Source: Pirellulales bacterium (GTDB taxonomy: Bacteria; Planctomycetota; Planctomycetia; Pirellulales; JALHPA01). From it: a DNA stretch of 64,000 bases. Location of the stretch: positions 7,169-71,168 of the forward strand of contig JBGSSS010000210.1 of NCBI GenBank assembly GCA_041736895.1, read 5' to 3'. How positions within the stretch are numbered: the first letter of the stretch is position 1; every line of letters starts with the position of its first letter. The notes beneath the pieces are model-generated. The model was not told the DNA's origin and ran no database searches. It worked only from the letters and a program-made list of their open reading frames with translations. The position numbers and the translations under genes are program-made. Below, piece by piece: positions 1,529 through 45,110 of the stretch.

Positions 1529-1810
1529 TCAGTAAACTTCGTCGTGTGTGCCAACGCTCAATAAGAGAATCGTTTCCGTACCCGCATCGTCAACTAGATC
1601 GAAGACAATACGCAGATCATAAGCCACACTGCTCGCCCAGGAGTCCGCCAAGTCGCCTTTCAGTTTGTGCGTTCGCAACCGCGCATCAAAGGCGTCACTC
1701 TCCAAGAGCAGCAATGTTTCTTGCAGCGCCTCGCGCAGCTCGGGATTGCGTTTTACCAAGCGGCGGATAGCTCGCGCGAATCCCGGCGTTTGTTTCAGCG
1801 GGCGATTCAC
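1529..1810 (-). CDS. type II toxin, RelE/ParE superfamily (YafQ/RelE-like mRNA interferase)
   Basis: 93 aa. THKLKGDLADSWASSVAYDLRIVF...LLLSVGTHDEVY matches the RelE/YafQ C-terminal pattern. GTG start overlaps the antitoxin stop (GTGA). Confidence 0.8.
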   Translation of the reverse strand: MNRPLKQTPGFARAIRRLVKRNPELREALQETLLLLESDAFDARLRTHKLKGDLADSWASSVAYDLRIVFDLVDDAGTETILLLSVGTHDEVY

Positions 1811-2019
1811 TGGTCGAGCTCCTCCAGAAAATTTTTAGGATCGAACGGAGTAGCAAGACCCGCCTCAAAGTCGCGGCGGCCTTGCTGCACTTCCGTGATC
1901 ACACGCTGCCGCCCTTGTTCGGCCAAGCGTTTTTGAATCAAAGCCACCAGTTCAGCTTGATCTTCCAAGGGCAAAAGTTCGACGACGGAGAGGGCGTTAT
2001 TGAATGTTGTCGTGTTCAT
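1807..2019 (-). CDS. putative antitoxin partner of the RelE/ParE-like toxin
   Basis: 70-aa acidic ORF directly upstream with a 4-nt overlap onto the toxin. First ATG is at 2019; the ORF-track start at 2040 is TTG. Family not recognised. Confidence 0.6.
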   Translation of the reverse strand: MNTTTFNNALSVVELLPLEDQAELVALIQKRLAEQGRQRVITEVQQGRRDFEAGLATPFDPKNFLEELDQ

Positions 2020-2085
2020 CGAAAACTCGTTTCGTGGCAAAAGATGATATTCAAATTATACCATCGCCCGCACGTCCCGGAAGAT

Positions 2086-2523
2086 TTATTGATTCAGTAA
2101 CTCTAGCGTCCGCTCGTCCTCCGCGCCATCATAATATTTCGCCAGGAGCCATTCAAACACCGAACCCTGGTCGCTCACCGTGGCGAAGAGCGTTGCGCAC
2201 GAGCAGAGCTTCAAATCATCCGGCGCGCCGAGAATCTCGTTGATCGTGCGGCCGTTCACCGCTAGGACCAACTCCGCGCATTCGCGCAGCCGCGCGCCCA
2301 AAATCGAATGCGTCAAATACGCCCGGGCTTCGTCCGTCGATTGAATCGCGTAACGCTGGGCCAGCGAACCTGTGCCAAGGCCCGCGAACTGCGGAAAGAT
2401 GAACCACATCCAGTGCGACTGCTTCCGGCCGGCGCGCAGTTCAGCGAGAACGTCGTTATAGACGGACTCTTGCGCATCGAGGAAGCGTTGCAGGTTATGC
2501 GGGTCAGAGGCGCTGGATTGCAT
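2086..2523 (-). CDS. DUF1810 domain-containing protein
   Basis: DPHNLQRFLDAQESVYNDVLAELRAGRKQSHWMWFIFPQ is the signature N-terminus of DUF1810. ATG at 2523. Confidence 0.85.
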   Translation of the reverse strand: MQSSASDPHNLQRFLDAQESVYNDVLAELRAGRKQSHWMWFIFPQFAGLGTGSLAQRYAIQSTDEARAYLTHSILGARLRECAELVLAVNGRTINEILGAPDDLKLCSCATLFATVSDQGSVFEWLLAKYYDGAEDERTLELLNQ

Positions 2524-2603
2524 TATGTCCTCACACGATTTCTTGCTCAGCCGATTTCTGAATCGGAAGTTCCAGTTCATTTAAAAGCGCACCTGCACTC
2601 GGT

Positions 2604-2965
2604 TCATTTTTTTCTCTGTTGCGCCCAGCGCAACACCCCAGGAGCCTGAAAAACGGGGCAAAAAATGGGGAAAACGCGGGAAAAACCACCGAAAAAGCGC
2701 GGAAAAAACACGAAAAAATCGCAAAAAGATCAGAAAAAAACGCAAAAAGAACGAAAAAATTCAGAAAAAAACGCAACTGTGCGCGCCCCCGATTTCCGGG
2801 TTTAACGGAACACCGATTCGAGCCTTCGCCAGAATCTCGCGGGGAATACCGCAGTCCACGGCTCGCTCGGTCGGGCCAAAGCCGGACAAAGCGTGCGCCG
2901 CGCTATTTTTTTGTGTTGCCTTTAAAGGCAACCTTCGTTGGGCTTTTTCATTACTTCGTGCGCCC
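2604..2965 (+). repeat. phased-A-tract element, copy A
   Basis: About 360 bp, alignable by eye over its length with 44752-45110. 12 A-tracts at 2649-2771. Hairpins at 2618-2634 and 2915-2932. Confidence 0.85.
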
Positions 2966-3093: not shown

Positions 3094-3117
3094 CCAGTGC
3101 CACTGGCTCGGCCAGTG
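3094..3117 (+). repeat. CCAGTGCCACTGGCTCGGCCAGTG palindromic repeat
   Basis: Same 24-mer at 28340-28363. Hairpin CCACTGGC-TCG-GCCAGTGG. Confidence 0.6.
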
Positions 3118-3216: not shown

Positions 3217-3651
3217 TCAACTCAACGGCGGCGGTGGATAGTGCCTGTTCTTATCGAGCTCTTGACGCGCGTTATATTCCGGCGGCTCGAGCGAAGGAAA
3301 TGGCAGCGAGGGGAGCAGCGAAAACGAATCACTCTGCGCCACACCGAACAGCATGGCAAACAGTTGCACGGCCAATCCGACAAGGAAGCCGACCAAGGTG
3401 CAGCCAAATAGAATCACCAAGGGGATCAAGACGAGCGCCATGACGGTGGAACGTTCACTCCAAGTGGCAGCGTAGATGACGATCGTGATGAACGCTCCGA
3501 ATCCGCCCATCTGAAGCCCAGCGACGATGCCTTGACGCAGGTATTTTGTGTGCGCGGCGGACGCCAATGTGGCGGCACTTGCCGACGGCCGCAGTTCGGC
3601 CTGCGGCGCGGCATAGGGATTCTCCTCCGCAGGTGTTACGTCTTGTGACAT
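3217..3651 (-). CDS. small membrane protein, NPYxxPQ N-terminal motif family (paralog 4)
   Basis: MSQDVTPAEENPYAAPQAEL followed by two hydrophobic helices. ATG at 3651. One of four tandem paralogs. Confidence 0.6.
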   Translation of the reverse strand: MSQDVTPAEENPYAAPQAELRPSASAATLASAAHTKYLRQGIVAGLQMGGFGAFITIVIYAATWSERSTVMALVLIPLVILFGCTLVGFLVGLAVQLFAMLFGVAQSDSFSLLPSLPFPSLEPPEYNARQELDKNRHYPPPPLS

Positions 3652-3664
3652 GGGAATTATTCTC

Positions 3665-4021
3665 TCAATCATCCACTTCAAGCAACTGGTACGGTCTTCG
3701 CCAGCCGAAATCTTGCAGCATGCGATCGGTGATGGCGGCGACCGCGCCGAGCAATAACCCGCCAACAATGCAGACAGGTAAGGCAACGATGATATAGACG
3801 AACGCCATCAATAGCCAATAACCCGGCAGTTGCCAGCCCATCCGCATGATGAGATACATTACCAGACAGCAGCCTGCTAGAAAGCCAAGCTGATAGCCGT
3901 GTTGCATGAAATACCAGCGAGTCTCGTTCGTCCGAGTCGGTGCGGCAGCATGTTCTGCGGCGATGAGCTGTGTCTGCGGGGAAGTATAAGGATTCTCCTG
4001 CGCATGTTTGGATTCATTCAC
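3665..4021 (-). CDS. small membrane protein, NPYxxPQ N-terminal motif family (paralog 3)
   Basis: GTG start at 4021 overlaps the stop of the upstream paralog (GTGA). MNESKHAQENPYTSPQTQL plus two TM helices. Confidence 0.65.
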   Translation of the reverse strand: MNESKHAQENPYTSPQTQLIAAEHAAAPTRTNETRWYFMQHGYQLGFLAGCCLVMYLIMRMGWQLPGYWLLMAFVYIIVALPVCIVGGLLLGAVAAITDRMLQDFGWRRPYQLLEVDD

Positions 4022-4389
4022 GAAGCACCTCGCACTTCTTCGTCGTTGCTTGCAGCAAGACTCGATTCAGCGAACGAATCCGGCATCACCAACACAAAAC
4101 AAGCATACGCGATTCCCCAGGCAAGCCCCAGCACCATCGTCACGACGATGAAGACGCCGGCAATCAACAACAAGTTCTGCGCATTGGCTTGATAGCCGCT
4201 GAGCAGGCGCGCCAGATACAGCAGGATCATCGAGAGCGACGCGACCAGCCCGGCGGTCAAGCCGCGAACCATGCCGCGCCAGAGATACTTCCCCGGGAAG
4301 CGCCGCACGTTGCGGCCATGCGGCTGCTCATTCGCCGCGCGAAGGTTGGTCGTCTGCGGAGCTTCGTAGGCGTTCACTTGTGCTTGCAT
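4018..4389 (-). CDS. small membrane protein, related to the NPYxxPQ family (paralog 2)
   Basis: MQAQVNAYEAPQTTNL plus two TM helices. An alternative in-frame ATG at 4494 would add a DUF1810-derived leader (MNPTPDPHNMQRFLDAQELVY). Confidence 0.55.
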   Translation of the reverse strand: MQAQVNAYEAPQTTNLRAANEQPHGRNVRRFPGKYLWRGMVRGLTAGLVASLSMILLYLARLLSGYQANAQNLLLIAGVFIVVTMVLGLAWGIAYACFVLVMPDSFAESSLAASNDEEVRGAS

Positions 4390-4477
4390 CGTTTGCCCCT
4401 GAGGTCGCGACGGAGAAATGATCGCGCCGCCATAGACCAGTTCTTGCGCGTCGAGGAAGCGTTGCATGTTGTGCGGG

Positions 4478-4819
4478 TCAGGGGTAGGGTTCATCTGTTG
4501 GCGGCTCGTCTTTTGAAGCAAATGATTGCTGTTGGACTCGGGTTCCAGACACGCTTCCTAGATAAAGTCCAATACTGGAACTTAGGATTCCGATCATCGT
4601 GAATGCGATGAGATAGTCGATCGTAGTTCGCGGGCTCGATCGGTGAGTTTTAACTTCAGGTAGATAGAGAGAGGACATTAGCGCGGCGATAAAAATTGCC
4701 GACCAAAACGCGATGCGGCCATTAAACTTGTTTGTGTAGATGACTTTGGGCGGAGCCTTTAGTAGTTCAGCCTGCGGCGCGGCGTAGGGATTATCGAGCG
4801 GAGCCGGTTCGTTGTTCAT
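4478..4819 (-). CDS. small membrane protein, NPYxxPQ N-terminal motif family (paralog 1)
   Basis: MNNEPAPLDNPYAAPQAELL plus two hydrophobic segments. ATG at 4819. Confidence 0.6.
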   Translation of the reverse strand: MNNEPAPLDNPYAAPQAELLKAPPKVIYTNKFNGRIAFWSAIFIAALMSSLYLPEVKTHRSSPRTTIDYLIAFTMIGILSSSIGLYLGSVSGTRVQQQSFASKDEPPTDEPYP

Positions 4820-4980
4820 GATGGTTATTTCAGGCGGACTAGATCATCAATGCGAGAACCGCAAAACCATTATAACTCTTCACGGGTACAGACTTGAGTC
4901 ACTTGATCCCCTAGTTCCGCCGCGTTTCGTCGTTTACCATAAGGAATTGCCCAGAATATCGCCAATTTGCCCCACACCCG

Positions 4981-5940
4981 ATGCTGCAAACCGAACGCCC
5001 CCGCGCCGAACCTGTGCCGATCCCCGCGAACCTGCGCAGCACGCAGCCCGGCGGCGGCAAGTGCTACGCGCTGGAGTTGGCTTGGGGCCGTTGGCGGCGG
5101 GCGTGGCTCAAGAAATTTCGCCCTGGTTACGTGCGCCGCATGGCGGAGACGATGACCGGCAGCGACGAAGGCGCGCCGCATGAAATTCTCGATCCGCGCG
5201 ACCTCAAGTACGCGCGCAATCAATGCACCGCCGCGTGGGCTTCCGAGCACGATCCGTTTCGCTGGCGCAATCACGTCGGCTTCGCACGCTGGGGCTTATG
5301 CGAACTGCTGATGATGGGTGGGTTCTGGCTCGCTGCGACAATTGGACTCGTGTTTCTGCCCGGCGCTTGGGCTTGGACGGCGCTCGTGCCGGGCATCGTG
5401 CTGGTGCTGATCGTCTGGTTCTTCCGCGACCCGCCGCGGCGGATTGCCACGGAGCCGGGACTGGTGGTTTCGCCCGCCGATGGAAAGCTGGTCGAGGTGA
5501 CACCGCTCGCGCATCATGATTTTGTCGGCGGGCCGGCGTATAGAATTGGCATCTTTCTTTCGATTTTCAACGTTCACATCAACCGCTCGCCCGTCAAAAG
5601 CCGGGTGATTCAATTACAATATTCTCCAGGCAAGTTCCTCAACGCGCTCGATCCCGAAAGCGCGCTGTTGAACGAGAACCTCTGGATCGGCCTCGAAGAA
5701 GAAGAAGCACCCCATCGCAAAATGGTTGTCCGGCAGATCTCGGGTTTGATCGCGCGGCGGATCGTGTGCGACTTGCGCCCGGGCGAAGTGATCGAGCGCG
5801 GGCAGAAGTTCGGCATGATCAAGTTCGGCTCGCGCACGGAGTTGATCCTGCCGCAAGCGGGGTTCGAGTTGCTCGTCAAACCGGGCCAGATGCTGCAAGC
5901 CGGCAGCACCGTGCTGGGGAAGTATGCGGAAGCGACGTAG
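4981..5940 (+). CDS. psd: phosphatidylserine decarboxylase family protein
   Basis: VVSPADGKLVEV...IFLSIFNVHINRSPV...GMIKFGSRTELILP (G-S autocleavage site region). About 110 aa of basic N-terminal extension plus TM segments; true start uncertain. Confidence 0.85.
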   Translation: MLQTERPRAEPVPIPANLRSTQPGGGKCYALELAWGRWRRAWLKKFRPGYVRRMAETMTGSDEGAPHEILDPRDLKYARNQCTAAWASEHDPFRWRNHVGFARWGLCELLMMGGFWLAATIGLVFLPGAWAWTALVPGIVLVLIVWFFRDPPRRIATEPGLVVSPADGKLVEVTPLAHHDFVGGPAYRIGIFLSIFNVHINRSPVKSRVIQLQYSPGKFLNALDPESALLNENLWIGLEEEEAPHRKMVVRQISGLIARRIVCDLRPGEVIERGQKFGMIKFGSRTELILPQAGFELLVKPGQMLQAGSTVLGKYAEAT

Positions 5941-8300: not shown

Positions 8301-9266
8301 CTAATATGAACCGATCGTTTCGCCGCCATTGCGCGAACCGAGCGCGCGATAGGCCAGCGGGTCCATCTCCGCTGCCAGGTAATGCACCGAGCCATCGACA
8401 AAGCAGGCATTCACGCCCGAGGTGTGCATGCTCCGGGCGACGAGGAACATGTTCGTGGCGTTGTACTCGCAAGGCGCTTCGGGGACCGGTTTTTTGGAGC
8501 ACCAATTGAAACGGTCCTCGATCAGCGTGTTGGGCGTGTGCAGCGTCGTGAAGTACACCCCGCCGTGGGCCGGATTGTAGTAGCGGCCGCGGATATCGTT
8601 GTCGGTTTCATCCGGCGTCAAAATGAGCTCGCTGACGGCCACCGTTTTCGAAGTGCCGTCGGTGATGTGACGGTATTTGGTTTTGGAAAGGGCGTAGATC
8701 GTGCCGTTGTTTTTCGCACTGCCCGCGGTGCCCCCTTCGTTCAGGTATTTACTCCCGGCGCAGACGACGTAGTTGCCGGAGAAACCCTGGTAACCGCCGG
8801 CGGAGCCCCCTTTGTTGAAGGTCACGGTTTTGGGATTCGTGGGATCGGCGGGGCACATGAGCACACTGATGATCTTGCCGCCGCCGGGAAAATTCAGCGA
8901 GGACGCGCCGGTGGCCATGTATTTTTCGTATTCTTTGGAGAGCTGTACCTCTTCGATAAAAGGCAAGATATCCTGCATCCAACTGCGGCGATCCTGTTTT
9001 TTGTTGTAGGGGCCGGTGTCGCCGCCGGTCGTGTCGATGTAGTTGTACGTCCCATGAGGGAAGCGCTTGTTGGCATCGGCGTAGTGGATCAAGCCGAGCA
9101 TCGCTTGCCGCATGTTGTTCTTGCATTGCGTTCGCAGCGCGGCGGCCCGGGCGGATTGAATCGCCGGGAGGAGCAGGGCGATCAAGATGCCGATGATGGC
9201 AATGACCACCAAAAGCTCAACCAACGTGAATGCGAACCGTTGCCGTCTCGCAGAAGTAACTGCCAT
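8301..9266 (-). CDS. DUF1559 domain protein with prepilin-type N-terminal cleavage/methylation domain
   Basis: [44 protein letters not shown] and C-terminal SMHTSGVNACFVDGSVHYL. ATG at 9266; GTG at 9278 is possible. Confidence 0.9.
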   Translation of the reverse strand: MAVTSARRQRFAFTLVELLVVIAIIGILIALLLPAIQSARAAALRTQCKNNMRQAMLGLIHYADANKRFPHGTYNYIDTTGGDTGPYNKKQDRRSWMQDILPFIEEVQLSKEYEKYMATGASSLNFPGGGKIISVLMCPADPTNPKTVTFNKGGSAGGYQGFSGNYVVCAGSKYLNEGGTAGSAKNNGTIYALSKTKYRHITDGTSKTVAVSELILTPDETDNDIRGRYYNPAHGGVYFTTLHTPNTLIEDRFNWCSKKPVPEAPCEYNATNMFLVARSMHTSGVNACFVDGSVHYLAAEMDPLAYRALGSRNGGETIGSY

Positions 9267-9484
9267 AATCCCCACCACGGTGAAAAGCCTTGCCGTTTAT
9301 GCCCCCGCCCGACTGAACGTGTTGTTTATTGTCATTTTCGGTTGACTGCGGGTCAAGCTCGAAATAGTTCGGCAATTCCCTGTTTCTGACCCTGGGGCTC
9401 AGGTTGAAGTGGCGAAGCGACAATGTTTCCGAATCCAAACGTGGCAAGCTGACTTAAACACTTCGGCTATGCTAAAATCGATTG

Positions 9485-28339: not shown

Positions 28340-28364
28340 CCAGTGCCACTGGCTCGGCCAGTGG
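28340..28364 (+). repeat. CCAGTGCCACTGGCTCGGCCAGTG palindromic repeat
   Basis: Second copy. Lies inside the ATG-initiated 5' extension of ORF 27080-28426. Confidence 0.6.
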
Positions 28365-44751: not shown

Positions 44752-45110
44752 TCATTCTTTTTTCCTGTTGCTCCCGGCGCAACACCGCCAGACTCTCGAA
44801 AAACCGGGCAAAGCTGGGAAAAATCCGGGAAACACCACCGAAAACGCGCGAAAAAACCCAAAAAAATCGCAAAAAGATCGGAAAAAAACGCAAAAAGAAC
44901 GAAAAAAATCAGAAAAAAACGCAAATGTGCGCGCCCCCAATGTCCGTGTTTAAACGAACACCGCTTCGAGCGACTACCACAATCCCGCGGGCAAACCACA
45001 CTCGCCGCGCGCCGGGTCAGGCCCAAGCCGGACAAAGCGCGCGCCGCCCGATTTTGGGGTGTTGCCTTAAAAGGCAACACTCGCGGGGCTTTTGGGTCGT
45101 TCGTCGCCGC
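44752..45110 (+). repeat. phased-A-tract element, copy B
   Basis: Same orientation and architecture as copy A. A-tracts at 44799-44919. Hairpins at 44767-44783 and 45061-45078. Confidence 0.85.

Follow-up and report, generated by a model that had tools for sequence, protein, structure and literature searches.

A 64-kb stretch of DNA from a Pirellulales bacterium (the window) carries on its minus strand a tandem array of four small genes, named A to D here in order of transcription. Near its N-terminus each product has a version of one short peptide, the tag, with a core of the type NPYAAPQ. Open reading frames (ORFs) and a six-frame scan confirm a first-pass annotation that had placed four minus-strand genes of 113–144 amino acids (aa) here, with a motif near the start of each. 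From the ORFs and their translations, A (4478–4819, ATG start) encodes 113 aa, B (4018–4389, ATG start) 123 aa, C (3665–4021, GTG start) 118 aa and D (3217–3651, ATG start) 144 aa. Two junctions are tight, as first described: the stop codon of B overlaps the start codon of C as GTGA (4018–4021), and C and D are 13 nt apart. The gap between A and B is 88 nt. ORF B is open upstream to 4521, so its start is uncertain; on an identical public contig the gene caller annotates B as 158 aa, starting inside a DUF1810-derived fragment described below. We favour the ATG at 4389 because AGGGG lies six bases upstream of it. A protein identical to A is also present on a public contig.

The full tags read DNPYAAPQAEL in A, VNAYEAPQTTNL in B, ENPYTSPQTQL in C and ENPYAAPQAEL in D. 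Their cores are NPYAAPQ in A (4772–4792, residues 10–16), a degenerate NAYEAPQ in B (4354–4374, residues 6–12), NPYTSPQ in C (3974–3994, residues 10–16) and NPYAAPQ in D (3601–3621, residues 11–17). Scanning all six frames of the whole window for N[PA]YxxPQ gave four matches, all in A–D, where we calculate that about 0.04 would be expected by chance. Looser patterns found no further convincing copy in the window.

By hydropathy, all four proteins consist of a polar head followed by two hydrophobic segments, which agrees with the two helices proposed at first pass and, for D, with an AlphaFold2 model. The segments span residues ~35–56 and 65–90 in A, ~39–66 and 67–107 in B, which also has a basic juxtamembrane stretch, and ~41–65 and 61–102 in C. 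In the D model (11-sequence alignment), helices at 26–62 and 70–102 are predicted with a predicted local distance difference test score (pLDDT) of about 90, and a conserved KYLRQG stands ahead of helix 1. The tails (1–25 and 103–144) are of low confidence and predicted to be disordered, with pLDDT about 50 in the tail that holds the tag. The first hydrophobic segment begins at about residue 35 in A and 40 in D, where the tag begins at residues 10 and 11. Counts of lysine plus arginine in N-tail, loop and C-tail are 7/1/1 for B, 3/1/3 for C, 3/1/3 for D and 4/3/2 for A; by the positive-inside rule these favour an N-in/C-in hairpin for B, C and D and leave A ambiguous. Judged by sequence, the array proteins are probably small helical-hairpin inner-membrane proteins with both tails in the cytoplasm.

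B, C and D are related through their helices at 26–30% identity, which is weak but detectable, and their alignment has Y37, G45, G49, G88 and G92 (D numbering) invariant. A is the most divergent, tied to the other three only via the motif and via a relative on a different contig, L3_1 (29% identity over 136 aa). The family went unrecognized at first pass, and database searches likewise leave it unnamed. In Pfam, A–D fall below all cut-offs (best 13–22 bits versus a required 25–34) and match none of the models DUF805 (PF05656), RDD (PF06271), DUF2569 (PF10754) and DUF5362 (PF17319). NCBIfam has nothing near its cut-offs, with no match to N_methyl or any other signal model. PADLOC gives no match and PHROGs no meaningful one, and a comparison of the D model with known folds returns only generic helical hairpins, every one at E > 1. 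The four proteins fit no described family, and we refer to NPY-tagged membrane proteins as an operational class defined here, recognized by N-P-[YF]-x-x-P(-Q) with acidic flanks in the N-tail. A, C and D match this pattern in full and B in degenerate form.

The C-tails have conserved features of their own. D-type proteins (D and P0002–P0008) share a second linear element there (3217–3340 in the window), SLPFPSLEPPEY.A.QELDK.G..PPPPL, which contains a PPxY-like LEPPEY. A-type proteins end in acidic, proline-rich tails (DEPPTDEPYP in A; also EEPAVNEPPP). The C-tails of both types may be docking sites.

The array genes are real and under purifying selection, yet they evolve far faster than their surroundings. 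We take them as real because synteny holds in five related contigs, dN/dS (the ratio of nonsynonymous to synonymous substitution rates) is 0.21 and 0.34 where given below, and all four have orthologues, so that the conservation in relatives on which the first-pass annotation depended is present. The conserved order is psd, array, DUF1810, glyoxalase; on one side the array borders psd and a CDP-alcohol phosphatidyltransferase gene, and on the opposite side DUF1810 and a gene of the glyoxalase family. Metagenomes contain nine orthologues of D (49–100% identity). A has orthologues in L001 (109 aa, 47% identity, dN/dS 0.34), P0032, P0038 and P0052. Orthologues of B with an intact NPYAAPQ occur in L001 (27–30%), L029 (35%) and L031 (32%), and C has one in L029 (114 aa, 41% identity, tag NPYQAPQ). 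A metagenome search for relatives added only one further true orthologue, the rest being RDD proteins that share just the tag and a helix. Viral contigs gave no match, and a phage origin is rejected.

Between the window and L001, the flanking genes are 83–93% identical at the protein level (psd 93%), with dN of 0.05–0.13. D is 70% identical (dN 0.22, dN/dS 0.21), A 47% (dN 0.44, dN/dS 0.34), C 29% (dN 0.87) and B 27% (dN 0.94), so that dN in the array is 2–19 times that of the flanking genes. Gene content differs as well. The array of L001 has five genes (X1-B′-X3-D′-A′), with NPYAAPQ in all; L029 has X1-B′-C′-D′ and L031 B′-X3-D′. L030 has X1, a truncated B′ whose tag has decayed, and D′, and L003 has two genes. 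Copy number thus ranges from 2 to 5 over at least six paralogue types, with D in every related array. The low identity among paralogues had been read as a sign of an old array. It need not mean great age: because the flanks are 83–93% identical where the array is 27–70% identical, and because gene content differs, the array turns over fast. The accompanying proposal, a tandem paralogue array with a selectively retained tag, is borne out, as the tag stays fixed while the rest diverges: its N, Y, P and Q are invariant across the D orthologues and B, C and D. A and D share 32 nt at the tag that are 91% identical. Gene conversion is not needed to account for this, since phyla that use different codons retain the same peptide.

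The tag consensus is [DE]-N-P-Y-A-A-P-Q-A-E-[LVI]. All 87 distinct instances have N, Y and the second P, 86 have the first P and 79 have Q; the two residues ahead of the tag are mostly D or E, and the ninth residue after N is L, V or I in 73. N most often lies at residue 4 (M-x-x-N-P-Y); in the Pirellulales array it lies at residue 10–11 (6 in B). The distance from tag to first hydrophobic window has a median of 31 residues for terminal tags and 35 for internal ones (interquartile range 29–36, n = 126), and A and D agree with these medians. At every tag position all synonymous codons are in use, both within the array and across phyla, and therefore selection acts on the peptide rather than on DNA or RNA. 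A DNA or RNA element is rejected on this codon variation and on the lack of an Rfam match.

To see how widely the tag occurs, we scanned one genome per species from 185,579 species for NPYAAPQAE with a position-blind, degenerate DNA pattern. About one match is expected by chance on our own calculation (2^-40 per site over 1.2e12 sites). The scan returned 21, all within ORFs. Twenty of them begin 2–16 residues past a start codon, which supports the N-terminal placing claimed for the tag at first pass, and the remaining one follows a GYF_2 domain. All of the 21 except L024, which peaks at 1.46, precede a stretch with mean hydropathy of at least 1.6 over 19 residues. The matches come from Planctomycetota (Pirellulales, Thermoguttaceae, Aeoliella and another metagenome-assembled genome (MAG) of that phylum), from Proteobacteria (Massilia, Pseudoduganella, Burkholderiales, Luteibacter, Lysobacterales, Steroidobacteraceae and a gammaproteobacterial MAG) and from Polyangiaceae, Myxococcota, Holophaga and Prosthecobacter, so that the phyla include Myxococcota, Acidobacteriota and Verrucomicrobiota.

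By Pfam, the scan carriers belong to DUF805 (two scanned plus two close homologues), RDD (five) and DUF2569 (one), and the others have no family; in every carrier assigned, the tag lies outside the Pfam domain. The internal tag is that of L006 (Holophaga), where a GYF_2 domain is followed by a proline/alanine linker, the tag and a DUF5362-type membrane domain. This DUF5362-type family shows two layouts, either GYF_2, linker, tag and domain, or tag and domain alone with the tag at residues 3–10. In a GYF_2 protein of the first kind, P0062, the tag region in the linker is again predicted to be disordered (AlphaFold2).

We also searched 1.84 billion representative proteins with a motif profile (E ≤ 1e-3). 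Of the 45 matches, 41 start at residues 1–9; of the other four, two probably have mis-called starts, one (P0058) has a zinc ribbon ahead of the tag and one is a long serine-rich protein with internal repeats. Further carriers include DUF4328 (PF14219), a half-EamA protein and a recurrent unclassified family of ~180 aa. E-values for so short a motif are weak, and the tag prevalence is a lower bound. A word-indexed protein search for the motif returned only 16 very short proteins and was of no use as a census. Tagged genes also occur as tandem pairs elsewhere: DUF805 proteins in Massilia and Pseudoduganella with TNPYSMPQAQL and NPYAAPQAEL (L004 7388–7975, L011, L022), RDD proteins in Luteibacter with NFYAAPQAEL and NPYAAPQAEL (L019 1309–1858, L023, L026 3388–4483) and members of the 180-aa family in a Lysobacterales MAG (L017 154–1200).

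The tag, which had been taken as a property of the window family, is therefore portable and not a family signature: it is found on many unrelated membrane-protein families in at least five phyla. No PDB chain contains the motif. Nor is the bacterial tag described in the full-text literature that we searched on the motif, the families and bacterial GYF domains, a scope that leaves subscription journals outside.

Three tagged proteins of Planctomycetota (L012, L014 and L016) have no Pfam match and share R-C-V-x-C-N-x-P-A between tag and helices; perhaps they form a planctomycete membrane family, so far undescribed, that is marked by a cysteine motif. P0050 (143 aa) contains the module MDENPYEAPQ(A/E)K(L/P)VD(P/R)PR-helix twice in tandem, the second copy beginning with an internal Met, and may represent two small tagged genes that were fused or whose separating stop was missed. 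P0033 (949 aa, serine-rich, probably eukaryotic) has a membrane segment near its N-terminus, four exact repeats of EENPYAAP[ND]LPVKTVESLY, a fifth, degenerate one (MENTPYAAPNLP) and also DDPYASV/DDPYESV. This protein seems to have come convergently to a cytoplasmic signal of the NPY type.

The first-pass annotation had offered sorting, recognition or processing as the class of signal. Recognition is the most reasonable of these; sorting or processing finds no support in a polar head, in internal copies of the motif or in a locus with no adjoining peptidase or transporter. We give an even chance to the reading that the tag is a cytoplasmic docking peptide with a conserved partner. It has the anatomy of one, because a short, invariant, acidic peptide with P and Y stands in a tail that is predicted to be disordered and is probably cytoplasmic, at a set distance from the membrane, ahead of unrelated domains, and is conserved across phyla. 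Under this reading, a disordered cytoplasmic N-tail would open with a short linear motif about 30 residues ahead of the first membrane helix, and a conserved partner would bind it in the cytoplasm. On this view the array would supply membrane ‘bodies’ that diversify fast behind one constant ‘handle’. The hairpin bodies may diverge fast because membrane helices are weakly constrained, or because they diversify to meet different membrane partners. We infer docking as the mode of action, together with a topology taken from the positive-inside rule and with partner candidates that are leads only, namely binders of proline-rich sequence (GYF and zinc-ribbon modules) or a membrane AAA+ protease or its adaptor. 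More tentatively, the tag is possibly the ligand of an unrecognized dedicated receptor, through which a whole class of small inner-membrane proteins would be sorted, tethered or turned over across several phyla of diderms.

Several points weigh against docking. No partner was identified, and neither the window nor the related contigs have a receptor-like conserved neighbour, the genes there being housekeeping genes. In the AlphaFold2 model of P0062 (87-sequence alignment), the motif is left undocked on the GYF_2 domain of its own chain, with motif pLDDT of about 50–59, so the model does not support binding of the tag by GYF_2 in cis. The tag of B is degenerate, and the B-type copy in L030 is truncated, its tag decayed to NRYAAPH, so some array members are possibly non-functional. 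The census was seeded with the exact AA form of the motif, and the columns of the profile took in the initiator Met and some hydrophobic positions. The tag-to-helix spacing depends on first-helix positions from a crude hydropathy window, and about one third of that sample is DUF5362.

We regard the tag as a new class of bacterial linear motif; the interest of the array as such is modest. Eukaryotic short docking motifs have been catalogued well, and only a handful are known in bacteria. The tag explains why four otherwise dissimilar small proteins keep one near-identical stretch. As a peptide of 8–11 residues it is also a concrete and cheap experimental handle, and it could offer several large families of unknown function their first functional clue. 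Should there be a dedicated receptor, the system would be a bacterial counterpart of the eukaryotic tyrosine/NPxY-type cytoplasmic signals, and DUF805, RDD, DUF2569, DUF5362, DUF4328 and the hairpin array would be joined in one pathway.

Members of these five Pfam families bear the same NPYAAPQ-type peptide as the window proteins. In the tagged members the tag begins the N-tail at a similar distance from the helix, and they sometimes form tandem pairs. The window proteins are two-helix hairpins, whereas hydropathy and the P0062 model suggest 3–5 hydrophobic segments for carriers in those families. None of the five families has a known function.

A possible guide to the kind of partner is GltJ of Myxococcus xanthus (PMC11135422). 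Its zinc-ribbon, linker and GYF modules, which are N-terminal and cytosolic, bind a linker peptide and a proline-rich sequence, and the authors of that study propose that modules of this kind act generally as switches. In GltJ-like arrangements among the tagged proteins, the tag lies in the linker after GYF_2 (P0062 family) or after a zinc ribbon (P0058), before the membrane domains, and some tagged RDD proteins have zinc-ribbon-like CxxC pairs (L015). Unlike GltJ, the window proteins have no GYF or zinc-ribbon domain, and the known GYF ligand in the GltJ system, the proline-rich region of AglZ (PMC11135422), is not the tag motif.

Eukaryotic NPY, NPxY and NPF motifs offer a second comparison. 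N-terminal NPY motifs of the t-SNARE Sso2, for example, are reported to bind the PH domain of Sec3 (PMC9427108). Like the tag as proposed here, such motifs are short N-P-Y peptides that provide docking sites in the disordered cytoplasmic N-tail of a membrane protein. They differ in that the proteins and organisms are unrelated, the consensus in bacteria, NPYAAPQAEL, is the longer one, and the tag has no known PH, PTB or EH receptor. The likeness is an analogy of mode, not homology.

The likeliest alternative is a special case of docking, in which the tag would serve as a degron, or as the place where a membrane AAA+ protease of the FtsH type, or the adaptor of such a protease, initiates. An entire class of small membrane proteins would then share one turnover signal, open to regulation. 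To begin degrading membrane proteins, FtsH requires a flexible cytoplasmic tail of some 20 residues or more, and the tag stands in a disordered, predicted cytoplasmic tail, at a rather constant 25–39 residues from the first helix, in carriers that are many and unrelated small membrane proteins. We nevertheless think a degron unlikely: initiation by FtsH is regarded as largely sequence-independent, no protease or adaptor gene is linked, and the exact-motif scan finds the tag in some diderm phyla only, whereas FtsH is universal. A known regulator among small membrane proteins is MgtR, which promotes FtsH degradation of MgtC. Regulators of the MgtR type are, like the array products, very small hydrophobic proteins in which the membrane part could recognize a partner while the tail engages cytosolic machinery. 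They have no sequence relation to the array, and they are not known to have a tag in common or to form arrays.

The spacing of tag and helix also admits a co-translational role. A nascent chain of about 30–35 residues fits inside the ribosomal tunnel, so the tag would leave the exit while the first helix is made ~30–35 residues behind it, and could recruit or prime a targeting or insertion factor such as signal recognition particle (SRP), YidC or another ribosome-associated factor. This spacing is kept for terminal tags and for tags after GYF_2, and the carriers are all membrane proteins. The argument is from spacing alone, however, and a similar one would serve any membrane-proximal receptor; no factor is known to read such a polar peptide, and among phyla the tag seems more restricted than SRP or YidC. 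We consider a co-translational role improbable.

It is equally improbable that the tag has no partner in trans. Its role would then be physical or in cis, for example in setting topology, in capping the membrane interface or in touching its own membrane domain, or the peptide would recur because acidic, proline-rich tails converge on it. Such an explanation would accommodate the lack of any identified partner, tails that are generally rich in proline, alanine and acidic residues, and the absence of a fixed structure for the tag in AlphaFold2 models. An exact nine-residue match in 21 species of five phyla, against about one expected, is too specific for composition, with N, P, Y and P invariant or nearly so and Q nearly so. 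The membrane domains behind the tag are unrelated folds, which makes a common cis contact unlikely.

Antagonist-driven evolution could account for the turnover if the array genes were conflict-type genes (immunity, exclusion or decoy) and the tag were incidental to that role. Small, tandem, translationally coupled membrane proteins with 2–5 copies, paralogues that come and go and dN 2–19 times that of the flanks would fit such genes. The locus does not: the surroundings are housekeeping genes, PADLOC and PHROGs give no match, and no toxin, secretion or defence gene adjoins the array, the nearest toxin being an unrelated YafQ-type pair 1.4 kb off, beyond DUF1810. Membrane helices also tolerate fast substitution under weak constraint, and dN/dS is below 0.5. 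There is little probability in this explanation.

The least supported alternative is a sorting or processing signal read, and perhaps removed, by a dedicated peptidase or transporter, which is very improbable: a short, strongly conserved N-terminal peptide common to paralogues, and N-terminal in 20 of 21 scan matches, would suit it, but the head is acidic and polar without a hydrophobic core, some copies of the motif are internal, behind GYF_2 or a zinc ribbon, the positive-inside rule would place it in the cytoplasm, and no peptidase, transporter or sortase-like gene adjoins the array in the local context of the window, L001, L003 or L029–L031. Sec, Tat, lipoprotein and prepilin signals are, like the tag, N-terminal and common to unrelated proteins. 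The tag differs from all of them in lacking a hydrophobic core, a twin arginine, a lipobox and G-F-T-L-I-E, in being acidic, in probably remaining in the cytoplasm and in its ability to be internal.

Around the array, the divergent upstream neighbour is psd, for phosphatidylserine decarboxylase (4981–5940, plus strand; PF02666, E 7.9e-40). The 160-bp intergenic region between A and psd (4820–4980) presumably holds the promoters of both, for which the candidates are weak consensus matches only; the order of psd then array is kept in L001, L003, L029 and L031. The conserved downstream neighbour is an intact DUF1810 gene (2086–2580, minus strand; PF08837, E 2.6e-58). A duplicate of its 5′ end lies between A and B (4442–4484, minus strand), encodes DPHNMQRFLDAQELVYGG and is in frame with the upstream extension of B (4390–4521). 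This fragment is 91% identical over 43 nt to 2468–2510, the beginning of the intact DUF1810 gene. In L001, the A orthologue stands directly before DUF1810 and overlaps it. Read from these sequence matches, the fragment is the record of a rearrangement that shifted A from the end of the array to its front.

Between DUF1810 and the glyoxalase gene sits a YafQ-family toxin gene (PF15738, E 1.6e-8) with an overlapping upstream ORF of 77 aa, presumably its antitoxin (1529–1810 and 1807–2040, minus strand). Comparable pairs of small genes come after the block in L001 and L030. The wider surroundings are of a housekeeping kind, with riboflavin synthase, KsgA and a DUF1559/N-methyl protein (8301–9278) that matches N_methyl; DUF1559/N-methyl proteins are typical of Planctomycetes. 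The array locus is not a genomic island.

The 636-bp gap between D and DUF1810 contains a dispersed repeat of ~340 bp (2608–2947, plus strand) that is not part of the array. It is 82% identical over 341 nt to 44758–45093, in the same orientation, and is absent from the related loci and without an Rfam match. About 11 phased A-tracts (GAAAAA-N5, period ~11) run through it, with a hairpin near its end, GGTGTTGCCTT(T/A)AAAGGCAACAC. The repeat resembles intrinsically bent DNA, or else a mobile or regulatory element of small size. The same gap also holds, at 3094–3117, one copy of an exact 24-nt repeat whose other copy lies at 28340–28363.

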